Assembly: GCA_002328835.1 (NCBI GenBank)
Contig: DCWN01000042.1
Span: 1,086-65,085 of the forward strand
Direction: 5' to 3'
Length of the DNA stretch: 64,000 bases
Source: Acidobacteria bacterium UBA2161
Lineage (GTDB): Bacteria > Acidobacteriota > Vicinamibacteria > Vicinamibacterales > UBA823
Positions 791-32,292 of the stretch are shown here, piece by piece; the first letter of the stretch is position 1; each line of letters begins with the position of its first letter. Under the pieces are notes generated by a model. It did not search any database, was not told the DNA's origin, and was given only the letters and a program-made list of their open reading frames with translations. The translations under genes were made by a program, and so were the position numbers.

Positions 791-865
791 TGGAGCGGGA
801 GACGGGGATCGAACCCGCGACCAACGGCTTGGGAAGCCGTGACTCTACCACTGAGCTACTCCCGC
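791..865 (-). tRNA. tRNA-Gly (anticodon CCC), CCA encoded
   Basis: Reverse complement reads GCGGGAGTAGCTCAGTGGTAGAGTCACGGCTTCCCAAGCCGTTGGTCGCGGGTTCGATCCCCGTCTCCCGCTCCA. It has a cloverleaf with acceptor GCGGGAG/CTCCCGC, anticodon stem ACGGC/GCCGT, loop TTCCCAA and T-loop GGTTCGATCC. Confidence 0.9.
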
Positions 866-3505: not shown

Positions 3506-4120
3506 ATGAATCTTCCCAATTCGTTGACGCTCGGCCGCATCTTTCTGATTCCGCTGCTCGTTGTCGTGCTGCTGACGAGATTCGAGGGTCGCATGATTCT
3601 CGGAATTCGCAAGGAACTCGTCGGCGCAGTGATCTTCGTGTTGGCTGCCGGCACCGATTGGCTCGACGGCTATCTGGCTCGACGCCGCGGCCAGGTGACG
3701 ACCCTCGGACAGTTGATGGATCCGCTCGCCGACAAACTGCTCATCACGGCGGCATTCGTCTCGCTCGTAGCGTTGGATCTGGCGCCGGCTTGGATGGTCG
3801 CCGTGATTCTGGGCCGGGAACTTGGGGTGACGGTTCTGCGGAGCGTGGCCTATTCCCGCGGCGTCACGATCGCCGCGTCCGCGCTTGGAAAAGTGAAGAT
3901 GGTCGCGGAGGTCGTGGCGATCGTCCTGCTGATCCTGGGCGGCGACTACCTGCCCCAGCTGTTCGTCGTTGGCCAGGCGGCGTTGTGGGTCGTGCTGGTT
4001 GCGGCGCTGCTGTCCGCCCTCGACTACTATCGCCGCTTCAATCACGTCATCAATCCGAAGGTCGCCGAGTTCGCCGCAGACCAGAAGCGTTCGTCAGAGA
4101 CGCGCGCGCGTAGCGGGTGA
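3506..4120 (+). CDS. pgsA: CDP-diacylglycerol--glycerol-3-phosphate 3-phosphatidyltransferase
   Basis: NLPNSLTLGRIFLIPL... and CDP-alcohol phosphatidyltransferase motif GTDWLDGYLARRRGQVTTLGQLMDPLADKLL. Confidence 0.9.
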   Translation: MNLPNSLTLGRIFLIPLLVVVLLTRFEGRMILGIRKELVGAVIFVLAAGTDWLDGYLARRRGQVTTLGQLMDPLADKLLITAAFVSLVALDLAPAWMVAVILGRELGVTVLRSVAYSRGVTIAASALGKVKMVAEVVAIVLLILGGDYLPQLFVVGQAALWVVLVAALLSALDYYRRFNHVINPKVAEFAADQKRSSETRARSG

Positions 4121-20041: not shown

Positions 20042-21870
20042 CGTGCGTCCAGATCCAGAGTCAGGACGCGCGAGCCGGAGATGGCCTCACTCGTGCTCAG
20101 CTCCCAGCCGTCGAGCGTGGCGCGACGGAGCGGTGTGACGGCGCCCCGACTCCGGTCGGCCTTATAGATGGCCAACGCCGATGGGGGCAGGGCGGTCAGC
20201 GGCTCACCGGCAACCAGCGCACCTGAATCGGCGGCGAGCAGGCGCACGTAGAGCCGATTGTTGCGGCGGGCATCGTTGAGTATCCGGATCAGCTGGTTCA
20301 GGTTGCGCGGCTGCACCCGGCCTTGCGTCTCTTGCCGTTCCAGCTGCGCCAGCTCGGTGCCGCCGGCGACAAACAGCGACACGGTCGAGGGCGCGTTTGC
20401 GGGGATGCGGATCGGCAGAGTATGCACCTCTTCCGTGCCGCGGTGTGACCGCGTGGCGATCTTGAGCGTCGCCTCTCGCCCCGGCCGAACCCTCCGCTCG
20501 TCGAGCCAGACCCGTTCGATCTGCGCGCGCTGATCGTCCTCCGAGGCGGAGATCTCGAGGTGCAGGCTGTCGAGCGTAATCGGGGCGAAGCCGTTCTGAA
20601 CGAGAAACGTGATCGGCGTCAGAACTGACGTGGCAGCCGCCAGCGACGGGCCGTTCCCCGCAAAGACGTCGTCGAAGCCGAGAGGGGCATGGTTCTGAAA
20701 CGTTGCCGTGCCCGACACCGCGAGCGTCGCAGCGCCGGAACCGCGCTCGTACGCCCGCAGCGTGTTGAGCACCGTGACGAAGGTGAGCAGGGGCGTCAAC
20801 ACCTGGTCGTCGACGATGTGGAACTGCAGCTCACGGATGGTCGTGTTGCCGGCGCTGGGCCGGAGCGTCACTGTCACGGGAATCTGCCTCGGCGCGGGGC
20901 CGAGGGTGCCGGCGATCGCCGTCAGCCGATCCTGCTCGAACGTGCCGATCGCCTCGCCTACCGTGGCAATCTTGGTGGACGACAGCAGGCTCGGCAGCAG
21001 GGCCTGGATGTAGGCCCGGTTCATGACGAACTGGGTCGGGCCGAGATTCTGAAACGGGTGGCCGAAGGCGTATACCCGGTCGTTCTCGACGAGCGTGACG
21101 GTGCCGGTTCCCGCGAGCGACAGGTCGCCGTCAATCAGCGAGACGCTGACCGCGTCTCCGCCTTGAAGCGGTTCGGCGGCCCCGGGCGCGGCACCCGCCT
21201 GGCCGCCGCCGAGCACGGGCACGAGTCCGGTCCCGTCGAGGGCGGAGGTCAACAGGTCGGCCACGTCGCGGTCGAATCCGCTCAGGCTCAGGGGCGTGGC
21301 GATCGGGCGGAGCATCGTGGCGACGCTCTGCACTTCGCGGAGCGGCGGGCCGATCCCGGCGACATCCCGGGTATGTTGCGCGAAGGCCGCCGTCGGACGC
21401 ATCGACGCGCGAAACAGCGCGACCAGACGGTCAGGCGAGAGGGGAACCTCGACGGGCGGCCGAGCGGCGGCGGGCCGGACGCCGGGCAGGTTGACGGCGT
21501 CCAGCATCTCCTCGATCGGCGTGATGCCGGCCAGCGGTTCGGTCGTGAACGAGCCCATCGCATAGGCGACGGCGCCGACGAGTCGACCATCGACGTACAC
21601 CGGGCTCCCGCTCATCCCGGCGATGACACCGGTGTCGGCGAGAGGGCCGCCGTCCAGGCGCGCGAGGATGAGATTCCGCTTCGGGCCGTTGATGTTGTGG
21701 AGGATGCCGATGATTTCGACGTCGAACTCCTCGCGCGTCGTGCCCTCGAACACCGTGACACCGACGCCGTGCATGCCGGGACGCACCTCGGCGAGCGGGA
21801 GGACGTCGGCCGCGACGGCAGGCGTCACGAAACCAGCGAGGATCAGGCCGGCGACGAGCAGGTTCTTCAT
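20038..21870 (-). CDS. SpoIVB-type serine peptidase (S55 family) domain protein, exported
   Basis: Start reset to MKNLLVAGLILAGFVTPAVA (21870). S55-like core GVTVFEGTTREEFDVEIIGIL...LILARLDGGPLADTGVIAGMSGSPVYVDGRLVGAVAYA. The upstream 157 codons of the 767-aa ORF run across the intergenic leader region. Confidence 0.7.
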   Translation of the reverse strand: MKNLLVAGLILAGFVTPAVAADVLPLAEVRPGMHGVGVTVFEGTTREEFDVEIIGILHNINGPKRNLILARLDGGPLADTGVIAGMSGSPVYVDGRLVGAVAYAMGSFTTEPLAGITPIEEMLDAVNLPGVRPAAARPPVEVPLSPDRLVALFRASMRPTAAFAQHTRDVAGIGPPLREVQSVATMLRPIATPLSLSGFDRDVADLLTSALDGTGLVPVLGGGQAGAAPGAAEPLQGGDAVSVSLIDGDLSLAGTGTVTLVENDRVYAFGHPFQNLGPTQFVMNRAYIQALLPSLLSSTKIATVGEAIGTFEQDRLTAIAGTLGPAPRQIPVTVTLRPSAGNTTIRELQFHIVDDQVLTPLLTFVTVLNTLRAYERGSGAATLAVSGTATFQNHAPLGFDDVFAGNGPSLAAATSVLTPITFLVQNGFAPITLDSLHLEISASEDDQRAQIERVWLDERRVRPGREATLKIATRSHRGTEEVHTLPIRIPANAPSTVSLFVAGGTELAQLERQETQGRVQPRNLNQLIRILNDARRNNRLYVRLLAADSGALVAGEPLTALPPSALAIYKADRSRGAVTPLRRATLDGWELSTSEAISGSRVLTLDLDAR

Positions 21871-21909
21871 CGGGAAATAGGGGCGCGGCTGGGCCAGGAA
21901 CCAAGATCC

Positions 21910-21939
21910 CTTATAGCGCCGGAAATGATTGACAGTCAA
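21910..21939 (-). promoter_or_regulatory. candidate sigma70-type promoter for the S55 peptidase operon (TTGACT-N18-TATAAG)
   Basis: On the minus strand, -35 is the reverse complement of 21934-21939 and -10 the reverse complement of 21910-21915. About 40 nt upstream of the ATG at 21870. Confidence 0.35.
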
Positions 21940-21999
21940 GGAGAAAACGGCCGCGGGCATGGCGTTGCGGCGCCGGATCCGGCACGGGAGTGGTGGAAA

Positions 22000-22028
22000 T
22001 TGACACCCGCTGGGCGCCCTGGTATCGT
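22000..22028 (+). promoter_or_regulatory. sigma70-type promoter of the aromatic supraoperon leader (TTGACA-N17-TATCGT)
   Basis: Perfect -35 at 22000-22005, 17-nt spacer, -10 TATCGT at 22023-22028. Predicted TSS near 22035. Confidence 0.55.
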
Positions 22029-22071
22029 GCCCTATTGCGCCGCGGGAGACGTTGGCGGTGTGGAGTTCGAG

Positions 22072-22203
22072 ATGACGTTCGCAGCGTGTGACCGGACGGC
22101 GGCGACCGACGGCCCGAGGGGCCGCGAGCGGGTTGCTCTGTCCTACTGGTGGTGGTTTTTCTACTTTACGAATCTGTCTGAGGAGGCAGCCGTGCGGGCC
22201 TGA
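22072..22203 (+). CDS. leader peptide of aromatic amino acid attenuator (43 aa, MTFAACDRTAATDGPRGRERVALSYWWWFFYFTNLSEEAAVRA)
   Basis: GGAG at 22062-22065, 6 nt before the ATG at 22072. Eight consecutive aromatic codons TAC TGG TGG TGG TTT TTC TAC TTT at 22144-22167. TGA at 22201. Followed by an intrinsic terminator and then the aro/trp genes. Confidence 0.75.
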   Translation: MTFAACDRTAATDGPRGRERVALSYWWWFFYFTNLSEEAAVRA

Positions 22204-22235
22204 AACGCCACACAGTTCACGAGCGAGTAGTTCTC

Positions 22236-22274
22236 GAGCCTCTTCAGCCTGTTCCGGTTGAGGAGGCTTTTTTT
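22236..22274 (+). terminator. intrinsic (rho-independent) attenuator terminator
   Basis: GCCUCUUCAGC (22238-22248) pairs with GUUGAGGAGGC (22257-22267). That gives 11 bp including 2 G-U pairs and an 8-nt loop, followed directly by UUUUUUU (22268-22274). 35 nt upstream of the aroDE ATG. Confidence 0.75.
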
Positions 22275-22309
22275 GTTGTGGCGGTGACGGTGAGTGGACG
22301 AGGCGAGGG

Positions 22310-23770
22310 ATGGGACACCCGCAGTTGTGCGTGACGGTCACCGCGGACAGTACCGCAGAGCTTCGACAGCGTCGTGACGCGACGGTCGACGCGGATCTGA
22401 TCGAGTTGCGGCTGGACGGCGTTCGGGACGTCGACGTGAGCGGCGCGATTCAGGGCCGGCGGACGCCGGTCATCGTGACCTGTCGGGGTGTGCGGGACGG
22501 CGGTCGATTCGACGGCAGCGAGGACGAGCGTCGGCGGATGATGGACGAGGCGCTGACGGGAGGCGCGGAGTTCGTGGACCTGGAGTGGACGGGCAGCCCG
22601 GACCCGAGGATCGCCGTGGATGCGTCGCGGGTCGTCTTGTCGACCCATCTGTCCGCCTTTGACGCCGGGGAGGTGGAACCCTGCTACCGGGCGATGCGGG
22701 CGACCGGAGCGGCGGTCGTGAAGATCGCTGCCCCCGTCGAGCACTTGATGGATCTCGTTCCCATGGCGGCGTTGGGCCGCCGGGCCGCCGCGAGCCGCGA
22801 GCGTGCGGTCTTGATTGGCATGGGTCCGGCGGGCGCGGCCTCGCGCCTGCTGGCCAACCGGTTCGGCGCCTGCTGGAGTTACGCGGGCTCGGCCGCACCG
22901 GGGCAGATCTCGGCGGCGCGGATGGTTCGGGAGTTCCGATATCGCGACGTCGGCGTCGACTGGGAACTGTACGGCGTCGTCGGTAAGCCCGTCGAGCATT
23001 CCTTGTCACCGGCGATGCACAACGCCGGGTTCCAGGCGGCCGGCCGTGATGCCGTCTACTTGCCGCTGGCGGCGGCGGATGCCGACGATTTCTTCGGGTT
23101 CGCGGAGTCGTTCGGCCTGGCTGGCGCCAGCGTCACGGCACCGTTCAAGGCCGCGGCCTTCGAGCGTACTGAGACGAGCGATGACATCGGACGCCGGATC
23201 GGCGCGGTCAACACGCTGCGCCGGCGCGGCGATGGCTGGCAGGGGATGAACAGTGACGTGACGGGGTTCCTCGAGCCCCTGACCGACCGTCTGGCCTTTG
23301 AAGGGCTGCGCGCCGCGGTCCTTGGAGCCGGCGGCGCGGCGCGGGCGGCCGCGCTCGCGTTGGTCGAGGGCGGTGCCTCTGTCGACGTGTGTGCTCGGGT
23401 CACGGCTCGCGCCGAGGAGACGGCCGCGGTCTGTGGCGCCCAGGTCGGGGCGTTTCCGCCCGGCCCGGGCTCGTGGGACCTGTTGGTGAATGCGACGTCC
23501 GTCGGGACGTCGCCGAAGAGCGACGTATCGCCGATGCCGTCGTCGGCGCTGGATGGGCGCTTCGTCTACGACCTGGTCTACAACCCAAATCCGACCCGGT
23601 TGATGCGCGAGGCCGCGGCGCGCGGCTGCGCCACCCTCGGCGGGCTGGAGATGCTCGTGGCGCAGGCGGAGCGACAGTTTGAATGGTGGACGGGTGCGCG
23701 TCCATCGGGATCGGTATTCGCCACGGCGGCGCAGGCGGGACTCATGGACAGGATGGAGCGCGGAGCATGA
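22310..23770 (+). CDS. aroDE: bifunctional 3-dehydroquinate dehydratase (type I) / shikimate 5-dehydrogenase fusion
   Basis: N-terminal half LCVTVTADSTAELRQRRD...DLIELRLD is AroD type I-like. The C-terminal half starts YGVVGKPVEHSLSPAMHNAGF and has GAGGAARAAA (AroE). Confidence 0.85.
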   Translation: MGHPQLCVTVTADSTAELRQRRDATVDADLIELRLDGVRDVDVSGAIQGRRTPVIVTCRGVRDGGRFDGSEDERRRMMDEALTGGAEFVDLEWTGSPDPRIAVDASRVVLSTHLSAFDAGEVEPCYRAMRATGAAVVKIAAPVEHLMDLVPMAALGRRAAASRERAVLIGMGPAGAASRLLANRFGACWSYAGSAAPGQISAARMVREFRYRDVGVDWELYGVVGKPVEHSLSPAMHNAGFQAAGRDAVYLPLAAADADDFFGFAESFGLAGASVTAPFKAAAFERTETSDDIGRRIGAVNTLRRRGDGWQGMNSDVTGFLEPLTDRLAFEGLRAAVLGAGGAARAAALALVEGGASVDVCARVTARAEETAAVCGAQVGAFPPGPGSWDLLVNATSVGTSPKSDVSPMPSSALDGRFVYDLVYNPNPTRLMREAAARGCATLGGLEMLVAQAERQFEWWTGARPSGSVFATAAQAGLMDRMERGA

Positions 23771-25254
23771 AGCAGACCTCGTTCGAGGAGTTCACGACGC
23801 TTGCAACGCAGGGCACGTTCGTCCCGGTCTACAAGGAGATCATGGCCGACCTGCTCACGCCGGTCTCGGCGTTCCTGAAGGTCGCGGAGCACTCGGATCA
23901 CGCGTTCCTGCTGGAGAGTGTCGAGGGCGGGGAGCACGTCGCGCGCTATTCGTTCCTGGGAAAGGACCCGTTCCTCGTTCTGCGTGCCACCGGCTCCCGC
24001 ACGAGGGTGGAGCGTGCCGGTGTGGTGACCGAGTCCGATCGGCCCTTCGTTGAGCTTCTGCGCGACGTCATGACCGACTATCGATCGCCCGAGGTGCCGG
24101 GGCTACCGCGATTCACCGGTGGCGCCGTCGGCTATCTCGGCTATGACGCGGCGCCATGGGTGGAGCCGAAGCTCGCTTCTGCCTGGGCGAGCGGGCCAGA
24201 AGCCGACGCGGGGGCAGCGGACGACGCGGCCTTCATGCTGTTCGATACCGTTCTGGCATTCGACCACGTCAAACATCGAATTCTGATCATCGCCAACGCG
24301 CGGGTCGAGTCGGGGGAGCCTCTGGAGTCGCTCTATCAGTTCGCATGCGCCAAGATCCAGTTCCTAGAACGCGAACTCGGCCGCGCGCTCTCGCGGCCCG
24401 AGCCCGTGGCGGCCGATCCCAGCGAGGTGACCTCGAACACGTCACAGGCGGTCTTCGAAGAGGCCGTGGCGCGCGCGAAGGCGCACATCGAGGCAGGCGA
24501 CGTGTTTCAGCTCGTCGTCTCGCAGCGTTTCGAAACCGAGCTGCAGGCCGACCCGTTCTCCGTCTACCGGGCACTTCGCTACGTCAACCCGTCGCCGTAC
24601 ATGTACTTCATCAGGCTGGGCGGAACGGCGATTGCCGGATCGTCGCCGGAGATGCTCGTGCGCGTGGAAGGTGGCCGCGTGGAGACGCATCCGATCGCCG
24701 GCACCCGCCCGCGGGGCGCAACCGAGGCCGAAGACGACCGGTTGGCGGACGAGCTGAAAGGAGACGAGAAGGAGCGCGCTGAGCATGTCATGCTCGTCGA
24801 TCTGGGCCGAAACGATCTGGGGCGCGTGTGTGAGTACGGGACCGTTCGGGTGCCGCAGTTCATGCGGCTCGAGCGGTATTCCCACGTGATGCACCTGGTC
24901 TCCAAGGTCGAAGGACGCCTGGCTGAGGAGGTCGATCGGCTCGACGCGCTGACGGCGTGCTTTCCGGCGGGGACGGTGTCGGGGGCCCCGAAAGTGCGTG
25001 CGATGGAACTGATTGCGGAGTTGGAGCCGACGCGACGCGGCATCTATGCCGGAGCGATCGGCTACCTCGACTTCGCAGGGAATCTTGACTGTTGCATCGG
25101 CATCAGGACCGTCACGGTGACCGACGGCGTCGCGTCGGTGCAGGCGGGAGCCGGCATCGTGGCCGACTCTGAGCCAACGGCCGAGTACGAAGAGACCCGT
25201 GCGAAGGCGCGGGCGATGCTGCGGGCGATCGAGATGGCGCAGGGCGCGGGGTAG
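23767..25254 (+). CDS. trpE: anthranilate synthase component I
   Basis: Start reset to MKQTSFEEF (ATG 23767, ATGA overlap with the aroDE stop). LLESVEGGE, chorismate-binding core GTVSGAPKVRAMELI, GGAIGY. Confidence 0.95.
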   Translation: MKQTSFEEFTTLATQGTFVPVYKEIMADLLTPVSAFLKVAEHSDHAFLLESVEGGEHVARYSFLGKDPFLVLRATGSRTRVERAGVVTESDRPFVELLRDVMTDYRSPEVPGLPRFTGGAVGYLGYDAAPWVEPKLASAWASGPEADAGAADDAAFMLFDTVLAFDHVKHRILIIANARVESGEPLESLYQFACAKIQFLERELGRALSRPEPVAADPSEVTSNTSQAVFEEAVARAKAHIEAGDVFQLVVSQRFETELQADPFSVYRALRYVNPSPYMYFIRLGGTAIAGSSPEMLVRVEGGRVETHPIAGTRPRGATEAEDDRLADELKGDEKERAEHVMLVDLGRNDLGRVCEYGTVRVPQFMRLERYSHVMHLVSKVEGRLAEEVDRLDALTACFPAGTVSGAPKVRAMELIAELEPTRRGIYAGAIGYLDFAGNLDCCIGIRTVTVTDGVASVQAGAGIVADSEPTAEYEETRAKARAMLRAIEMAQGAG

Positions 25255-25256
25255 CC

Positions 25257-25823
25257 ATGGTGCTCGTCCTGGATAACTACGACTCGTTCACCTACAACCT
25301 GGTTCAGTATCTGGGACACCTCGGGGCCTGTCCCGTGGTGTGTCGCAACGACCAGGTGACGGTCGATGAAGCCGAGGCGATGAGCCCCAGTCGGGTGGTG
25401 ATCTCGCCGGGACCGGGCCGTCCGGAACAGGCAGGGATTTCCGTTGAACTCATCCGCCGGTTGGCGCCACGGATGCCCGTCCTTGGCGTCTGCCTCGGCC
25501 ATCAGGCCATCGGGGTGGCCTTCGGCGGCACCGTGCGGCGTCACAGCGAGATCCGACACGGCAAGTGTTCGCCGGTGGCACACGATGGACGCGGCGTCTT
25601 CGACGGACTGGAGCAAGGCTTCGCTGCGGCGCGGTATCACTCGCTGGTGGTGTCCGAAGATGGACTGCCGGCCGACCTCGAGGTCGGCGCGCGAGCTTCG
25701 GACGACGGCGCCGTGATGGGCCTCAGGCATCAGCGCTGGCCGGCGCACGGCGTGCAGTTTCATCCCGAGTCGATTCTCACCGATGTCGGCTGCCGGCTCA
25801 TGCAGACGTTTCTGGAGATCTGA
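25257..25823 (+). CDS. trpG: anthranilate synthase component II (glutamine amidotransferase)
   Basis: MVLVLDNYDSFTYNLVQYL, catalytic GVCLGHQ, FHPES. Confidence 0.95.
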   Translation: MVLVLDNYDSFTYNLVQYLGHLGACPVVCRNDQVTVDEAEAMSPSRVVISPGPGRPEQAGISVELIRRLAPRMPVLGVCLGHQAIGVAFGGTVRRHSEIRHGKCSPVAHDGRGVFDGLEQGFAAARYHSLVVSEDGLPADLEVGARASDDGAVMGLRHQRWPAHGVQFHPESILTDVGCRLMQTFLEI

Positions 25824-26854
25824 TGTTTGCCGCCCTGTTGGAGAAGCTGTCGAAGCACTACGACTTGTCCGCTGACGAGGCGGCCGGCGCCATGGAGGAG
25901 ATCATGGCCGGGCGCGCCGCCCCCGCGCAGATTGGCGGGCTCCTCATCGGCCTCGCGATGAAGGGCGAGCGACCAGACGAGATCGTCGGATTGGCCCGGA
26001 CGATGCGGGCGAACGCGGTGCAATTGTCCACGCCGCACGCCAGCGTGTTCGACACCTGTGGAACCGGAGGAGATCGATCACACACGTTCAACGTCTCGTC
26101 GGTCGCGGCGCTCGCACTCGCCGGCTGCGGCGTGACGGTGGCGAAACACGGGAATCGTTCGGTCTCGAGCAAGTGCGGAAGCGCTGATCTGTTCGAGGTG
26201 CTGGGTGTCAACGTCGCGGCTCCACCCGCACAGGTGGAACGTTGCCTCGACGGCGCAGGGATCGGCTTCTTCTTCGCCCCGACGTTCCATCCATCGATGA
26301 AGCATGCCGGCCCCGCCCGCAAGGACCTGGGCGTGCGGACGGCGTTCAATCTGCTTGGGCCGGTGACGAACCCCGCCAGCGCGACTCGGCAACTGGTGGG
26401 CGTGCCCAGGCCGGAGTTCACGGAACTGGTGGCGAAGGCCTTGGCGCTGCTCGGTTCGGAACGCGCCTGGGTCGTGCACGGCGCCGACGGTCTCGATGAG
26501 ATCTCGACGACGGGATACACGAAGGTGTCCGAGTGCTGGCGGGGAGTGGTGAACACCTTCTACCTGCATCCCTCGGAGCACGGCGTGCCGCGCGCGGAAA
26601 TGGCGGCCCTGAAGGGTGGGACGGCGAAGGAGAACGCCGAGATCGCCCGATCAGTCCTGTCCGGCGCGGCGGGCTCGCCGCGTGATGTTGTGGCGTTGAA
26701 CGCCGGCGCGGGGCTCTTGATTGCGGGCCGAGTCGGAACCCTGCGAGAGGGCGTGGCGATGGCGTCGCGCTCGCTCGACGACGGCGCGGCGAGCCGAAAG
26801 CTCGAGCTGATGGTCGAATTGTCGAACCAAGCCGTCGGGGAGCCGGGATCGTGA
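25823..26854 (+). CDS. trpD: anthranilate phosphoribosyltransferase
   Basis: Start reset to MFAALLEKL (ATG 25823, sharing one nucleotide with the trpG TGA). DTCGTGGDRSHTFNVS, KHGNRSVSSKCGSAD. Confidence 0.95.
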   Translation: MFAALLEKLSKHYDLSADEAAGAMEEIMAGRAAPAQIGGLLIGLAMKGERPDEIVGLARTMRANAVQLSTPHASVFDTCGTGGDRSHTFNVSSVAALALAGCGVTVAKHGNRSVSSKCGSADLFEVLGVNVAAPPAQVERCLDGAGIGFFFAPTFHPSMKHAGPARKDLGVRTAFNLLGPVTNPASATRQLVGVPRPEFTELVAKALALLGSERAWVVHGADGLDEISTTGYTKVSECWRGVVNTFYLHPSEHGVPRAEMAALKGGTAKENAEIARSVLSGAAGSPRDVVALNAGAGLLIAGRVGTLREGVAMASRSLDDGAASRKLELMVELSNQAVGEPGS

Positions 26855-27708
26855 GCCGCGCGACTGACCCGGGCGCCATCGCCGCCTCCGGGGCGACGGG
26901 TCCGAGCAGGGGCTCCAGCGTGGACGTGGACCTGCTGGAATCGATCGTGGGCGCTGCGCGGGCGTCTGCCGACGAGCGGCGACGGGTGACGTCCGATCGT
27001 GAGATAGAGCGCGCCGCGGCCGCCAGGACGCCGAGAGCGGCGGAGTTCATGGCGCGCCTGGAGCGGTCGGACCAGGTGAACGTCATTGCGGAGTGCAAGC
27101 GCCGGTCGCCTTCCCAGGGTGTGTTGTGCCGCGACTACGACCCGGCGACCCTGGCGAAGGCCTACGCCCGGGGTGGTGCGGCGGCGATCTCGGTGCTGAC
27201 CGAGCCGACGTTCTTCGATGGCGCCCTCGAGCATCTCAGCGAAGTGCGAGCGATGGTGGAGCTGCCGATCCTTCGCAAAGACTTCATCGTGACGGAGTAT
27301 CAGCTCGTCGAGGCGCGTGCGGCCGGCGCCGACGCCGCACTGCTCATCGTGGGCGCGCTCGACGGCGCGATGCTCCGGCGGCTACAGGCCTCGGCGGACG
27401 CACTCGGCCTGGCCGCGCTGGTCGAGGTTCACGACGAAGCTGAACTGGAGCGTGCCGTCGAGGCCGGCGCCCGACTCGTCGGCGTGAATAACCGGAACCT
27501 GCGCACGCTGGAGGTCGTGGTCGATACGAGCGTGCGGCTCATCGAACGGATGCCGGAGGGGGTGTGCGCCGTGGCCGAGAGCGGCCTGCGGTCGCCTGAG
27601 GATCTCGCCAGGTTGCGGACCCTCGGGTACCAGGCGTTCCTGGTCGGTGAGGCTCTGGCGACTGAAGCCGACCCGACGGCCGCGCTGGAGGCGCTCCGCG
27701 GTGTCTAG
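26851..27708 (+). CDS. trpC: indole-3-glycerol phosphate synthase
   Basis: VIAECKRRSPSQG, ILRKDFIVTEYQ, VNNRNLRTL. GTGA overlap with the trpD stop. Confidence 0.95.
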   Translation: MSRATDPGAIAASGATGPSRGSSVDVDLLESIVGAARASADERRRVTSDREIERAAAARTPRAAEFMARLERSDQVNVIAECKRRSPSQGVLCRDYDPATLAKAYARGGAAAISVLTEPTFFDGALEHLSEVRAMVELPILRKDFIVTEYQLVEARAAGADAALLIVGALDGAMLRRLQASADALGLAALVEVHDEAELERAVEAGARLVGVNNRNLRTLEVVVDTSVRLIERMPEGVCAVAESGLRSPEDLARLRTLGYQAFLVGEALATEADPTAALEALRGV

Positions 27709-28363
27709 GCGTCCGTTCGTGAAGGTCTGCGGCATCACGACGCGGAACGACGCGGAGTGCGCCGCGGGCCTCGGAGCCGATGCGCTGGGGTTCGTCTTCT
27801 GGCCGAAGAGCCCTCGCTATATTCCGCCGGCCGCTGCCCGACGGATCATCGATGGGGTTGGTCCGTTGACGACGGCCGTGGGGATATTCGTGGACGCGAG
27901 GGTGGACGAGATCCATCGGGCGGTCCTCGACGCGCAGATCGACGTCGTGCAACTGCATGGCGACGAACCACGCGAGTTGCTGTCTCAGCTGACGCGGCCC
28001 GTCATCCGGGCGGTCGGGCTGCGGGCGGCCGGGCCGGTCACGCCGATCGAGTCGCTGCCGCCCGACGTCACCGTGTTGTTGGATGTACACGACCCGCGGC
28101 GGCGAGGGGGGACCGGCCGGCAAGTCGACTGGGCCGTCGCGGCCCGCTGGGCGCGCCAGCGGCGCGTGATGCTGTCCGGCGGGCTGCGGCCCGACAACGT
28201 CAGGACGGCGATCCGTCAGGTGGCCCCCTACGGCATTGACGTGTCGTCGGGTGTCGAGTCCACGCCCGGGACGAAGGACGCCGGGAAGCTACGCGCGTTC
28301 TTCACGGAGATCGAGGCGGAGCGCGGGTCCGCGGCGACGGACGTTGAGGTGAGCCATGACTGA
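27701..28363 (+). CDS. trpF: phosphoribosylanthranilate isomerase
   Basis: GTG 27701 gives [13 protein letters not shown]... [20 protein letters not shown]. Overlaps the trpC stop by 8 nt. Confidence 0.9.
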
Positions 28364-29603
28364 ATCGTCGGTGATCTCGGCCCCGGTGTTCGGTCAGCGG
28401 GACCCGGACGAGCGGGGCTACTTTGGTGCCTACGGCGGGCGCTACGTGCCGGAAACGCTGGTGGCGCCCGTCGAGGCACTCGAAGCGGCGTACCGCGAAG
28501 CCAGAAGCGACCCGGCGTTCGGGCGCGACCTGCAGCACCTCCTGACCAGCTATGTCGGTCGACCGACGCCCCTGGCGGCTGCCGGGCGGCTGAGCGCGGC
28601 CGTGGGCGGCGCTCAGATTCTGCTGAAGCGCGAAGACCTTGCGCACACCGGCGCGCACAAGATCAACAACGCGCTCGGACAGGCGTTGCTGGCCGTGCGG
28701 ATGGGAAAGCGACGCATCGTAGCCGAGACCGGCGCGGGCCAGCACGGCGTCGCCACGGCCACGGCTTGCGCGTTGCTCGGGCTCGACTGCGACGTCTACA
28801 TGGGCGCGGACGACATGGCGCGGCAGGCGCTCAACGTCGTGCGGATGCAGTTACTGGGCGCCTCGGTTCGGCGCGTCGAGGGCGGCAGTCGAACGCTGAA
28901 GGACGCCATCAACGAGGCGATGCGGGACTGGGTCACCAACGTGACGGACACCTACTATCTGTTGGGGTCGGTGCTCGGGCCCCATCCCTATCCCCTGATG
29001 GTGAGGGAGTTCCAGTCGGTGATCGGCCGCGAGGCGCGGGCGCAGTGCATCGAGGCGACCGGCGGCGTACCGGATGTGGTCGTGGCGTGTGTGGGCGGCG
29101 GGAGCAACGCCCTCGGGATCTTCGATGGCTTCCTGGACGATGCAGCGGTTCGACTCGTGGGGGTAGAGGCCGGCGGGGAGGCGATCGCTCCAGGCCGACA
29201 CGCGGCCCGGTTCGCGGGCGGGACGATGGGCGTGCTGCAGGGGACGCGCAGCTACGTGCTGCAGGATGCCCACGGCAACATCGAACGGACCCACTCGGTG
29301 TCGGCCGGTCTCGACTACGCGGCCGTCGGGCCGGAACACGCGTGGATGCGCGACCTCGGCCGTGCGGAGTACACCTGGGTGAGCGACGGGCAAGCACTCC
29401 ACGCGTTTCAGGAACTCTGTCGTCGCGAGGGCATCATGCCGGCGCTGGAGTCGGCACATGCGGTAGCGCATGCCATGACGCTGGCCGGAACGCTCGGTGC
29501 CTCGGCACGCATCCTGGTCAACCTCTCGGGACGGGGCGACAAGGACGTCGACAGCGTCGCCGCGCGACTCGACCATTCGTCGACAGCCGACGGCGGGGCC
29601 TAG
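28356..29603 (+). CDS. trpB: tryptophan synthase beta chain
   Basis: [37 protein letters not shown]. 8-nt overlap with the trpF end. Confidence 0.97.
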
Positions 29604-29614
29604 AAGGGCGGAGG

Positions 29615-30415
29615 ATGTCGAAGCTCGACGAGACGTTCAGCCGGATTCGGAGCGTGGAGCGCACGGGCCTCGTGACCTACGTGACCGCGGGCGACCCCGA
29701 CCTCGGACGCACCGGGTCGATTCTGCGCACCCTGGATGGGGCTGGAGCGGACGTGCTCGAGGTCGGCGTGCCCTTTTCCGATCCGCTGGCCGACGGCCCG
29801 GTGATCCAACGGGCGTCGGAGCGAGCACGGGCAGGCGGGACGACGCTCGGCGCGACGCTGAAGATGGTCGGTGACACGCGAGGCGCACTGCGCGCGCCGG
29901 TGGTGATCTTCAGCTACGCGAACCCGATCTTGGCGATGGGTAGCCAGACGTTCGCGGCGCGCGCCCGGGACGCGGGCGTCGATGGCGTCCTGGCCCTGGA
30001 CCTGCCGATCGAGGAGGCGGGCGACTTCAGAGCGACGATGCTCGACGCCGGGCTCGACACGATCTTTCTGTTGAGTCCGACGACGAGCGACGCGCGGATC
30101 AAGCGGGCGGCTGAACTGGGCCGGGGATTCCTCTACGGGATCTCCCGGCTGGGTGTGACCGGGGCGCGGACGCAGCTGGCGGACGGCGCAGAGCCGATGG
30201 CGGCGCGCATCCGGGCTCAGACCCAGATGCCCCTGGCGCTCGGGTTCGGCGTGTCGACAGCCGAGCACGTCACCGCCATCGGTCGTTGGGCCGATGCCGC
30301 GGTCGTGGGTAGTGCGATCGTGTCGGTCATCGAGAAGTCCGCCGGAGATGCGACGCTGGAGTCGGCACTGGCCGCCTACGTCCAAGAGTTGACGTCGGGG
30401 CATGAAGCCCCCTGA
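29615..30415 (+). CDS. trpA: tryptophan synthase alpha chain
   Basis: Start reset to MSKLDETF (29615). LEVGVPFSDPLADGPVIQ motif. Confidence 0.95.
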   Translation: MSKLDETFSRIRSVERTGLVTYVTAGDPDLGRTGSILRTLDGAGADVLEVGVPFSDPLADGPVIQRASERARAGGTTLGATLKMVGDTRGALRAPVVIFSYANPILAMGSQTFAARARDAGVDGVLALDLPIEEAGDFRATMLDAGLDTIFLLSPTTSDARIKRAAELGRGFLYGISRLGVTGARTQLADGAEPMAARIRAQTQMPLALGFGVSTAEHVTAIGRWADAAVVGSAIVSVIEKSAGDATLESALAAYVQELTSGHEAP

Positions 30416-30507
30416 TGCGCGAGAGAAGTCATTGATGACACCCGTCGGCTGCCCGGCCATCCGGGCGTGTAGCCGACCGACGGCAGGGAGTGAAGGGGAG
30501 TGAGGCC

Positions 30508-31557
30508 ATGATGATCGTCATGCAGGAACAGGCGTCGGAGAGTCAGATCGAGAAGGTGGTCGAGCACCTGGGGGAGCAGGGGTTCGACGTCCACCGGTCG
30601 ACCGGCGCGCTGCGCACGGTGCTGGGCGCGGTCGGCGGCAACCGGACGTTCGACTTCAGGCTGGTGGAGGTCATGGACGGGGTGTCGGAGGTCCATCGGA
30701 TCACCGAGCCGTACAAGCTGGCGAGCCGAACGTTCAAGAGCGAGCGGACCGTGATCCAGATCGACGACCTGCGCATCGGCGGAGACGAGGTCGTGGTGAT
30801 GGCGGGCCCGTGCTCGGCTGAAACCGAAGAACAGGTCGAGGCGACCGCCTCCGCCGTGAGGCGCGCCGGGGCCAAGGTGCTGCGCGGCGGAGCGTTCAAA
30901 CCCCGCAGCTCACCCTACAGCTTCCAGGGGCTGGGAGAGCAGGGGCTGCAGATGCTGCGTGGCGCGGCCGACCGGCATGACATGAAGCTGGTGTCGGAGG
31001 TGATGGACGTCAGCCAGATCGAGCTGGTCGGGAAGTACTCCGACATCTTGCAGGTCGGCGCTCGAAACATGCAGAACTACACCCTGTTGCGCGAGCTCGG
31101 CCGCACCGCGAAGCCCGTGCTGTTGAAGCGGGGCATCTCTGCGACGATCGAGGAGTGGCTGCTCTCGGCCGAGTACGTCCTGGCAGGGGGAAATGGCGAC
31201 GTCATGCTGTGCGAACGGGGGATCCGGACGTTCGAGAGCTACACCCGCAATACGCTCGACATCTCGGCGATCCCGGTCATCCACAAGCTGAGCCACCTGC
31301 CAATCGTCGCCGATCCGAGTCACGGTACCGGGCGCCGGGACAAGGTGGCGCCGATGGCGCGCGCCTCGGTGGCCGCGGGGGCGGACGCCCTGATCATCGA
31401 GGTGCACAACGATCCCGAGCGCGCGAAGAGCGACGGGGCGCAGTCGTTGTTCCCGGAGCAGTTCGATCGCCTGATGACCGAACTGCGGATCATCGCTCCA
31501 GCGATCGGGCGAAGCATCTGCCTCGAGCCAGTCGGAGGAAAGGCATGGGGCAGATGA
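30508..31557 (+). CDS. aroF: 3-deoxy-7-phosphoheptulonate (DAHP) synthase, type I-beta, with N-terminal ferredoxin-like/ACT-like regulatory domain
   Basis: GGGGAG sits 7 nt before ATG 30508. The N-terminal 70 aa or so ([31 protein letters not shown]...) resembles the regulatory domain of Thermotoga-type enzymes. Catalytic core [29 protein letters not shown]. Confidence 0.85.
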
Positions 31558-31575: not shown

Positions 31576-32292
31576 ATGGTCGATCGGAGACCGCTGCCGG
31601 TCGTTCCGGCCGGTGCGCCGCGCGCCGCGCCGGTCTTCGAGAAGGTCGGCATCGTCGGCTTGGGGCTCATCGGGGGGTCCATCGCACTGGCGGCCCGGGC
31701 GGCGTGGCCGAACGCGCTGGTCATCGGCGTCGATGGCAGCGAAGTACTCGAGCAGGCGATGGCGCTCCAGGCCGTTGACGTCGGCGCGGACGACGCCGTC
31801 GTGCTGTCCGAGGCCGACCTCGTCATCCTGGCCGCTCTCGGCGGGCAGAACCTCGAGATGCTGAACGTGGTGGCGGATCATGTCGGCGGGGCGGCGGTCG
31901 TTTCGGATGTTGGCAGCACGAAGCGCGCGATCGTCGAGGCGGCGCGGGCCTTACTACGGCGGCTTCGGTTCGTGGGAGGGCATCCGTTGGCCGGCGCCGC
32001 CGGCCAAGGGATAGGCCACGCCCGGGCTGACCTCTTCAAGGGCCGACCGTGGCTCCTGACGCCAGACGGTGACGCGCAAGGTGAAGCGCTGCTGCGTCTG
32101 GGAGCATTCATCGAGGCACTGGGGGCCGCGCCGCGGACGCTCGACGCCGAGGAGCACGACAGCCTGATGGCATCGCTGCGTCAGAAGTCTGGGCCCGGCG
32201 CGGGACTCTACGAACTCTTCGAATCGGCCAACGACTGGCGAGAGATTCTGACGAGCGCGTTGGACGCGGTCCCAGCGAAGCGAGAGACCTGA
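31576..32292 (+). CDS. tyrA: prephenate/arogenate dehydrogenase, unusually short C-terminal domain
   Basis: Rossmann VGIVGLGLIGGSIA, catalytic-region FVGGHPLAG, EEHD. After EEHD only about 45 residues remain and no SHLPH-type helix is visible. Confidence 0.7.
   Translation: MVDRRPLPVVPAGAPRAAPVFEKVGIVGLGLIGGSIALAARAAWPNALVIGVDGSEVLEQAMALQAVDVGADDAVVLSEADLVILAALGGQNLEMLNVVADHVGGAAVVSDVGSTKRAIVEAARALLRRLRFVGGHPLAGAAGQGIGHARADLFKGRPWLLTPDGDAQGEALLRLGAFIEALGAAPRTLDAEEHDSLMASLRQKSGPGAGLYELFESANDWREILTSALDAVPAKRET

Follow-up and report, generated by a model that had tools for sequence, protein, structure and literature searches.

The 64-kb stretch of DNA analyzed here (the window; G+C content 67.8%) comes from a Vicinamibacterales (Acidobacteriota) genome and contains, on its plus strand, a promoter, a short open reading frame (ORF) and an intrinsic terminator directly upstream of aroDE. 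These elements very probably constitute a ribosome-mediated (leader-peptide) transcription attenuator of the ~10-kb aromatic supraoperon aroDE-trpEGDCFBA-DAHP synthase-tyrA. The leader and the first structural gene are laid out as follows (nt, nucleotides; SD, Shine-Dalgarno).

22000 to 22028, plus strand: sigma-70-type promoter (-35 TTGACA at 22000-22005; 17-nt spacer with a TG extended -10; -10 TATCGT at 22023-22028)
22062 to 22065, plus strand: SD sequence GGAG, 6 nt 5' of the leader ATG
22072 to 22203, plus strand: leader ORF of 43 codons with its ATG at 22072, translated in the window as MTFAACDRTAATDGPRGRERVALSYWWWFFYFTNLSEEAAVRA and then the stop
22144 to 22167, plus strand: regulatory codon run YWWWFFYF, the proposed ribosome stall site (codons 25-32, TAC TGG TGG TGG TTT TTC TAC TTT)
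22178 to 22187, plus strand: segment 2, the putative antiterminator 5' arm CUGAGGAGGC, an SD-like copy of the terminator 3' arm that lies within the leader ORF
22201 to 22203, plus strand: leader stop UGA, 13 nt after the end of the segment-2 core
22204 to 22216, plus strand: post-stop CCAC box AACGCCACACAGU, a tentative candidate anti-antiterminator predicted to pair with the Trp-codon region at 22145-22158
22236 to 22274, plus strand: intrinsic terminator (5' arm, or segment 3, 22236-22249; loop 22250-22255; 3' arm, or segment 4, 22256-22269; seven U residues 22268-22274)
22310 to 23770, plus strand: aroDE, first structural gene, a fused type I 3-dehydroquinate dehydratase/shikimate dehydrogenase (PF01487, PF08501, PF18317)

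An earlier sequence-only reading of the window had proposed a TTGACA-N17-TATCGT promoter, a GGAG-preceded 43-codon ORF with YWWWFFYF at codons 25-32, and an aroDE start 35 nt after the U-tract, and all three were recovered at the positions listed above. The promoter, to which the TG extended -10 can now be added, matches the consensus at 10 of 12 positions and is the sole promoter-like site in 21000-24000, compared to 0.2 expected from shuffles. Transcription would start at ~22035-22037 (about 22036), giving a 5' untranslated region (UTR) of ~36 nt. YWWWFFYF is the only run of at least five aromatic codons in all six frames of the window, where triplet frequencies predict 6e-7 runs of at least eight. 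The proposed terminator hairpin and its seven U residues were likewise borne out; the stem extends to 14 base pairs (22236-22269), 7 of them G-C, with a loop of 6, and the isolated hairpin folds at -24.3 kcal/mol. This terminator cannot belong to the upstream gene, because that gene, which encodes an S55-family peptidase, is divergent (minus strand, ATG at 21870). The copy of the terminator 3' arm that had been noticed inside the ORF at 22178-22187 is indeed complementary to GCCUCUUCAG at 22238-22247, over 10 base pairs with one G-U (duplex -18.4 kcal/mol). Antiterminator and terminator are mutually exclusive, since both use the terminator 5' arm. The window thus has a translatable short ORF between the promoter and the first structural gene, with ATG- or GTG-start equivalents in relatives, and this leader is enriched in codons for the products of the downstream operon: a Trp/Tyr/Phe (tryptophan/tyrosine/phenylalanine) run ahead of genes for the Trp and Tyr branches and the common pathway.

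An alignment of 34 AroDE homologues was used to fetch 80 loci from species-representative genomes (AroDE identity 49-87%), and 600-700 nt upstream of each aroDE were searched for an aromatic-rich short ORF. The scan found one in 72 of the 80 loci, and six more had weaker runs with the same downstream elements. Leaders below the threshold of this first scan (L003, L023, L036, L057, L061, L062, and L071; e.g. WRYRF, WWY..., or WRFNSF) have the same box and terminator. Two loci with too little upstream sequence (L068 and L070) were left out of the resulting 78, and two newly fetched ones (L082 and L083) also carry the leader. All 78 loci with usable upstream sequence share one arrangement, consisting of promoter, aromatic-run ORF, SD-like GARGAGGC box, in-frame stop, and terminator. 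As the complete arrangement is found again 5' of aroDE in each of the related genomes that were examined, its features lie far beyond chance. Moreover, a nucleotide profile of the stretch from the run to the terminator gave one forward-strand match per locus, directly upstream of aroDE, in 82 of 84 sources, and it matched the window once (22148-22274, E = 1.7e-17). The leader of L063 (WWWW) is present but too divergent for this profile. Several metagenome-assembled genomes with a Vicinamibacterales-type locus are publicly labelled Bifidobacterium, Bifidobacteriaceae, Woeseiaceae or Acidimicrobiia (L008, L035, L037, L040, L050, L073, L079, and L080); these are probably mislabelled or contaminated bins.

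The fixed position of the unit bears on a second interpretation, in which promoter, ORF and terminator form a stand-alone small RNA (sRNA) and/or encode a small aromatic peptide acting in trans, with read-through into aroDE being secondary. A unit with its own promoter and a strong terminator would release an RNA of ~240 nt, and 22168-22274 gives a weak match to a Burkholderia sRNA model (23.6 bits compared to a gathering score of 40). There is also precedent, in that two reports describe the Sinorhizobium trp attenuator RNA rnTrpL and its peptide peTrpL as functioning in trans (PMC6614838, PMC7298713). However, the unit always lies on the same strand as aroDE and directly upstream of it, and nowhere else in the loci or the window; the Rfam match is sub-threshold and covers essentially the terminator hairpin; and conservation of the peptide is limited to the aromatic run and the codons that overlap the RNA box. 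We consider a stand-alone unit very unlikely, and a role in trans is in any case compatible with attenuation rather than an alternative to it.

The leader ORF appears to be read as codons, which is implied by its frame-preserving spacing, in-frame stop, kept aromatic residues and unconserved N-termini. The N-terminal halves of the leader peptides are unconserved and variable in length (median 38 codons), and conservation falls on the aromatic run and a C-terminal ..EEA..A before the stop. Across relatives the aromatic residues are retained, although the sequence in which they occur and the choice of synonymous codons differ. Of 69 sequences, 61 have 9 or 12 nt between the last aromatic codon and the 8-nt box, and in 67 this distance is divisible by three; in the window the box core begins 12 nt after the final aromatic codon. 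The in-frame stop follows 13 nt after the box in 51 of the 69, and the remaining sequences differ by multiples of three. This stop has been kept although stops are rare in DNA with such a high GC content (68%); in the window, the frame in question stays open through the preceding 1.5 kb.

Translation of the leader could also act by another route, namely Rho-dependent polarity, translational coupling or reinitiation, with the hairpin and U-tract serving as a constitutive partial terminator or an RNA stabiliser. For several phyla, Acidobacteria among them, it has been proposed that leader genes near structural genes increase translation through reinitiation, with distances that peak at 10-16 nt (PMC4833913). 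By contrast, 106 nt separate the leader stop from aroDE in the window, and none of the relatives that were checked has fewer than 55 nt there, which is far beyond that peak. We return to this route below.

The same regularities of the ORF argue against a trans-acting factor. In such a model, the terminator/antiterminator switch would be set by a TRAP/PyrR-type protein, by uncharged transfer RNA (tRNA) as in a T-box, or by a riboswitch, and the ORF would be incidental. Bacillus aromatic supraoperons are controlled by the RNA-binding protein TRAP, and the two near-invariant boxes of a 71-sequence alignment of the family, UGGUGGU and GARGAGGC, could in principle be binding sites. Consistent with such a factor, a classical anti-antiterminator is not clearly conserved. 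However, a trans-acting site leaves unexplained the aromatic residues that are kept while codons and order change, the spacers in threes, and the combination of an in-frame start with a stop at fixed distance. A TRAP-type leader carries 9-11 (G/U)AG triplets, 2-3 nt apart; the 13 GAG/TAG triplets of the window leader are scattered and irregularly spaced, and no such array was found there. A cmscan search of 21800-22400 at E-values up to 10 returned one sub-threshold sRNA model over the terminator and three chance-level matches, and no match to a T-box, a riboswitch, an amino-acid leader or another Rfam family. Control of the switch by a trans-acting factor is accordingly, in our judgment, highly improbable.

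The initiation signals of the leader vary among relatives. A TTGAC(A/G)-N16-18-TAnnnT site lies 5' of the leader ORF in 53 of 72 relatives, and an SD-like sequence precedes the leader in 24 of 72 and is missing from 48. In ~30 relatives, the -10 of the conserved promoter (e.g. TTGACGCC..TCTGTTAGCCT) ends 10-15 nt before the leader ATG, with no SD; these loci include L007-L014, L015, L026, L032, L034, L042, L046, L054, L064, L072, and L073. Many leaders of the family may therefore be translated from leaderless or near-leaderless transcripts, as judged from these short distances. In Deinococcus deserti, putative attenuator leader peptides, including a trpEGD leader, have a transcript 5' end at or next to the start codon (PMC4007540). 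The many relatives with a -10 sequence 10-15 nt before the ATG and no SD resemble these leaders, although the transcription starts of the relatives are inferred. The window leader differs from them in its ~36-nt 5' UTR with GGAG, and the family is unrelated to them in sequence.

Two further observations concern the leader codons. Leaders of the window and 71 loci favour synonymous codons that end in A or T (TAT is 60% of Tyr codons and TTT 72% of Phe codons), compared to 29% TAT and 29% TTT in the adjacent aroDE genes, so that the leaders' choice is the rarer codons; the sequences behind these percentages are not independent. This preference could reflect sharper sensitivity to tRNA charging or a constraint of RNA structure. 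In one locus, L034 (~3855-3880), the leader ends early (..AWRWYWS and stop), where the sequence is one base shorter than in its neighbours and TGA falls immediately 5' of the conserved box. A ribosome terminating there would sit on the box itself; either a sequencing error or natural variation that alters regulation may account for this early stop.

The two mutually exclusive helices covary. RNAalifold on the 71-sequence alignment gave a consensus that contains the terminator only, with compensatory changes at 6 of 10 predicted pairs. Because RNAalifold cannot show alternative structures, the antiterminator was tested by pair counts for named structures (antiterminator columns 190-199/261-270 and terminator columns 261-270/288-297). 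Across the 71 sequences, terminator pairing holds in 94.6% of cells compared to 39-58% in slid controls, and antiterminator pairing holds in 92.1% compared to 41-53%; five pairs are changed on both sides in each helix. At antiterminator column 193:267, for example, the pairs are AU (34), GU (25), and GC (10), and GC marks the lineages with box CUGGAGAGGC and terminator arm GCCUCUCCAG. In this alignment the ORF box tracks the terminator 5' arm as faithfully as the 3' arm does, exactly as a 2:3/3:4 switch predicts. The sequence-only reading had suggested looking upstream of aroDE orthologues for conserved aromatic runs and compensatory stem changes, and both are present, in the 78 loci and in five pairs of each helix. 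A conserved, covarying complementarity to the antiterminator arm has no role in models of Rho-dependent polarity, translational coupling or reinitiation.

The arrangement suggests the following course of events. RNA polymerase would start near 22036, and the leader of 43 codons would be translated by a ribosome. In a shortage of charged tRNA-Trp, -Phe or -Tyr, this ribosome would stall in YWWWFFYF (22144-22167), with its 3' edge just short of segment 2 (22178-22187), and would also melt structures that otherwise hold segment 2. Segment 2, once freed, would capture the terminator 5' arm (22238-22247) as soon as that arm is made, so that no terminator forms and transcription reads through into aroDE. 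With charged tRNAs available, the ribosome would reach the UGA (22201-22203) and cover the CCAC box along with the 3' portion of segment 2. Once the ribosome is released, the leader would refold locally, segment 3 would pair with segment 4, and transcription would end at the U-tract (22268-22274). The geometry agrees with this scheme, as judged from the spacings and from masked folding and to that extent dependent on the model: a stalled ribosome leaves segment 2 free, and a ribosome at the stop blocks part of it.

Folding with and without a ribosome gave results on both sides, and several of them, together with two points from the family comparison, weigh against attenuation by a translating ribosome. 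When the full leader is folded at equilibrium under ribosome masks, the terminator prevails whatever the state and in all relatives, a result that would equally fit the alternative translation-linked routes. Since the terminator always wins at equilibrium, the switch must be kinetic, as in E. coli trp. The full-leader equilibrium test cannot discriminate, and the nascent transcript, ending ahead of the 3' arm, was therefore folded instead. On the nascent RNA of the window, the probability of the antiterminator is 0.00 without a ribosome and 0.99-1.00 with the A site of a ribosome on the first or the last aromatic codon, and it is 1.00 at all eight aromatic codons when the RNA behind the ribosome is barred from pairing. 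A ribosome at the stop again gives 0.00, but this is in part a consequence of the mask itself, under which 5 of the 8 core bases lie. When pairing across the stalled ribosome is allowed, in a transcript from 22036, the window value drops to 0.0-0.5, and the leader GGAG/start region (22062-22066) competes for the terminator arm. In relatives, the antiterminator probability exceeds 0.5 in 56 of 69 with a stalled ribosome and also in 45 of 69 with none. The 13-nt gap from box to stop means that a terminating ribosome covers merely the 3' few bases of segment 2. Moreover, the sequences are related and shuffle controls for that reason overstate independence and significance; the slid controls and the covariation across clades are more reliable. 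Finally, a conserved anti-antiterminator is not established across relatives, as neither of two candidate pairings is general.

Even so, the claim of trpL/pheL-type attenuation of an aromatic supraoperon is upheld by the conserved leader ORF of the 78 loci, the covarying 2:3 and 3:4 helices, nascent folding in the stalled state, and the content of the operon. The other translation-linked routes, in whose favour stand the equilibrium folding result and the precedent for reinitiation, seem to us most improbable.

A comparison of fold energies had been proposed for the 1:2 and 3:4 pairings against the 2:3 pairing, and its outcome was mixed. For 22036-22254 of the window, the minimum free energy (MFE) is -91.9 kcal/mol, compared to -85.5 kcal/mol with the antiterminator forced and -79.8 kcal/mol with the 1:2 helix of the sequence-only reading forced. 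The antiterminator is the predicted structure on the nascent RNA with a stalled ribosome, but the 1:2 helix lies 12 kcal/mol above the MFE. The complementarity on which that helix was based (22131-22144 with 22181-22191) exists, with 11 pairs and a duplex of -15.7 kcal/mol, but the helix is absent from the predicted fold, and we rejected it as the sequestering structure. In relatives, duplexes of this type between the 32 nt 5' of the run and the box are no more stable than shuffles (mean z-score -0.08), with p <= 0.05 in 14%.

In the ribosome-free MFE structure of the window, segment 2 is instead held in a local hairpin (22174-22179/22184-22189), and the three Trp codons, together with a portion of the Tyr codon ahead of them (22145-22154), pair with 22206-22216 (duplex -14.9 kcal/mol). 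A CCAC/CCGCC box follows the stop in 44 of 72 leaders compared to 14% of background windows. Pairing between the Trp codons and the post-stop region averages -14.0 kcal/mol compared to -11.7 kcal/mol (mean z-score -0.56) and is significant in 15 of 72, which led us to reject this helix as a universal anti-antiterminator and to keep it as a tentative, lineage-dependent one. The models indicate that the Trp-codon:CCAC helix likely sequesters segment 2 in some lineages, the window's included; as a family feature it is unproven.

Two structural observations stand apart from these candidates. The leader SD/start region at 22062-22085 is complementary to 22216-22243, just 5' of the terminator 5' arm and overlapping it, and this long-range helix closes the whole leader in the full-length MFE structure; in the ribosome-mask models it is a competitor of the antiterminator. 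The helix might serve to prevent re-initiation once the leader RNA has been terminated, or it might be an artefact of folding. In addition, the antiterminator arm is SD-like in all relatives (GGAGG, GAGAGG or GAAGAGG), and the terminator 5' arm resembles an anti-SD (CCUC). When a ribosome has the stop codon in its A site, its P-site codon lies ~10-11 nt beyond the end of the box. It is geometrically conceivable that the anti-SD of the terminating ribosome holds the box, which might help to commit the transcript to termination.

The codons of the run suggest which amino acids may be sensed. The family consensus is TGG TGG TAY TGG (W-W-Y-W), and leaders contain a mean of 2.8 Trp, 1.4 Tyr, and 0.7 Phe codons. 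Of 72 leaders, 71 have two or more Trp codons and 71 have one or more for Tyr; Phe is encoded at least once in 31 and at least twice in 11. YWWWFFYF in the window is shared with its 87% relative (NWWWFFYF) and resembles a clade with WWFFYF, WWRFFYF or WFWF(I/L)YF. By these counts, Trp and Tyr are the family norm and Phe codons are an addition in a sub-lineage. The proposal that one sensor reads the Trp, Phe, and Tyr tRNA pools therefore holds in part: the sub-lineage of the window has codons of all three kinds, but the family consensus is W-W-Y-W.

The operon that follows was identified by its NCBIfam/Pfam content, with these members after aroDE.

23683 to 30415, plus strand: trpE, trpG, trpD, trpC, trpF, trpB, and trpA (TIGR00564, TIGR00566, TIGR01245, NF001377, NF002298, TIGR00263, and TIGR00262)
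to 25254, plus strand: trpE
25257 to 25823, plus strand: trpG
to 26854, plus strand: trpD
26851 to 27708, plus strand: trpC
to 28363, plus strand: trpF
28356 to 29603, plus strand: trpB
to 30415, plus strand: trpA
30490 to 31557, plus strand: DAHP synthase, Bacillus-type
31576 to 32292, plus strand: TyrA-family prephenate/arogenate dehydrogenase, with an internal deletion

The trp genes overlap or are tightly packed, and the mechanical ORF starts of trpE, trpD, trpF, and trpA are probably too far upstream; only the ends of these four are given. No strong internal promoter or terminator was found between 22280 and 34600. That the operon combines common-pathway, Trp-branch and Tyr-branch genes, as had been read from the sequence, agrees with this content and with the order kept in relatives; in three relatives with 10-kb flanks, gene order matches the window, the divergent peptidase included.

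Several side observations were made at these loci. A chorismate mutase (CM_2) gene lies between trpA and the DAHP synthase gene in L081 (18136-18456) and L082 (17982-18299), whose leaders carry at most one Phe codon (YQWWYHWF and WWYW, respectively). This gene is absent from the window (30416-30489) and from L083, which have leaders with an FFYF run; with four loci, this is a lead and not a correlation. The tyrA-family gene of the window has 238 codons, and its product aligns to the 307-residue TyrA of a relative at residues 5-203 and then 268-307, so that ~65 residues of PDH_C are missing in frame and Pfam detects PDH_N alone. The short TyrA may reflect gene decay, a naturally short form or an error of assembly. 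Between the two divergent genes, a palindromic TTGACAGTCAA (21929-21939) and CTTATAG (21910-21916) are conserved, and the motif also occurs in L003, L036, L062, and L083. Read on the minus strand as TTGACT-N18-TATAAG (21910-21939), this is likely the promoter of the divergent S55-peptidase gene, which the consensus scanner missed because the final base of the -10 is G. Elsewhere in the window, a tRNA gene at 794-865 (minus strand) was the sole Rfam match at the gathering threshold.

That scan of the whole window returned no leader family (Trp_leader, Phe_leader or others). Because the covariance models do not match, the aroDE leader falls outside all Rfam leader families, although it shares its logic with several known systems, among them E. 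coli trpL and pheL and the trp and aroR leaders of actinobacteria. As in E. coli trpL, a short ORF with Trp codons and mutually exclusive 2:3 and 3:4 hairpins with a U-tract lie just upstream of trpE-type genes, the Trp codons are within a segment that pairs downstream, and the terminator is more stable than the antiterminator, so that the choice is kinetic. However, trpL has 14 codons with two Trp, whereas the 43 codons of the window leader include eight aromatic ones in succession, for three different amino acids. The operon of the window also differs in beginning with aroDE and in including DAHP synthase and tyrA, and the two leaders match neither in sequence nor by covariance model. Further differences from trpL are that the Vicinamibacterales anti-antiterminator is not clearly conserved and that many members are seemingly leaderless or near-leaderless. 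In E. coli pheL (pheA) and pheM (pheST), too, a terminator/antiterminator switch follows a short leader with consecutive Phe codons, among which pheM has an occasional Tyr, but each senses one amino acid and controls a single gene or a synthetase operon, and neither gave an Rfam match here. Integration of several aminoacyl-tRNA pools of a branched pathway by one leader is known from enterobacterial thrL (Thr and Ile) and ilvL/ivbL (Ile/Leu/Val), which serve other amino acids and pathways and are unrelated in sequence and structure. The B. subtilis unit aroFBH-trpEDCFBA-hisC-tyrA-aroE resembles the window operon in joining common-pathway, Trp-branch and tyrA genes under a terminator/antiterminator choice in the leader, but sensing there is by Trp-activated TRAP on 11 (G/U)AG repeats and not by a translating ribosome.

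A precedent for a mixed aromatic run is the aroR leader of Corynebacterium glutamicum upstream of aroF, which is described as a ribosome-mediated attenuator of a DAHP synthase gene with Phe-Tyr-Phe codons (Neshat et al. 2014, as summarised in PMC11802643). The aroR leader resembles the window leader in its mixed aromatic run and in controlling a common-pathway gene, and it provides a precedent for reading more than one aromatic tRNA pool. It differs in having three aromatic codons and no Trp, in being separate from trpL, in belonging to another phylum, and in its unrelated sequence; in the window, a single leader combines Trp, Tyr, and Phe codons and would control the trp genes too. Phe limitation alone is described as having an effect on aroR (PMC11802643), which cautions that not every codon type in the window's run need be sensed.

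The sequence-only reading had also held that such an attenuator was undescribed for this kind of lineage, and this stands in part. No description of an acidobacterial or Vicinamibacterales trp or aromatic leader was found in the searchable literature, which is weak evidence of absence as most subscription-journal papers lay outside the search; almost no cis-regulatory RNA of these Acidobacteriota has an assigned function, as one paper noted for the phylum (PMC2965389). However, mixed-aromatic leaders, multi-amino-acid leaders and leaders outside Proteobacteria are known (PMC11802643, PMC2965389, PMC4007540), and the his leaders of Firmicutes are leader peptides outside both Proteobacteria and Actinobacteria (PMC2965389). 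We suggest tentatively, at slightly less than an even chance, that the window leader is the founding example of an uncatalogued, order-wide family of aromatic attenuators in Vicinamibacterales, possibly the first leader-peptide attenuator documented for Acidobacteriota, with a lineage-tuned W-W-Y-W core to which Phe was added in the window's clade, and which reads two or three pools.

A conserved new family of a well-known kind of regulator is mechanistically unsurprising and leaves the understanding of attenuation itself unchanged. From the 71 aligned sequences, a new RNA or leader family could be built for genome annotation; gene finders do not call the small ORF. The natural series of variants, from YWWWFFYF, WWFFYF, WWYYGF, and WWYW down to WRYRF, could serve to examine how the sensitivity and specificity of attenuation depend on the number and mix of codons. 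If the interpretation is correct, a single stalling site would respond to two or three aminoacyl-tRNA pools and jointly control the genes of the common pathway and of the Trp and Tyr branches. This would provide a concrete, testable regulatory mechanism for aromatic amino-acid synthesis in Vicinamibacterales, which are abundant in soil and sediment and are rarely cultured Acidobacteriota.

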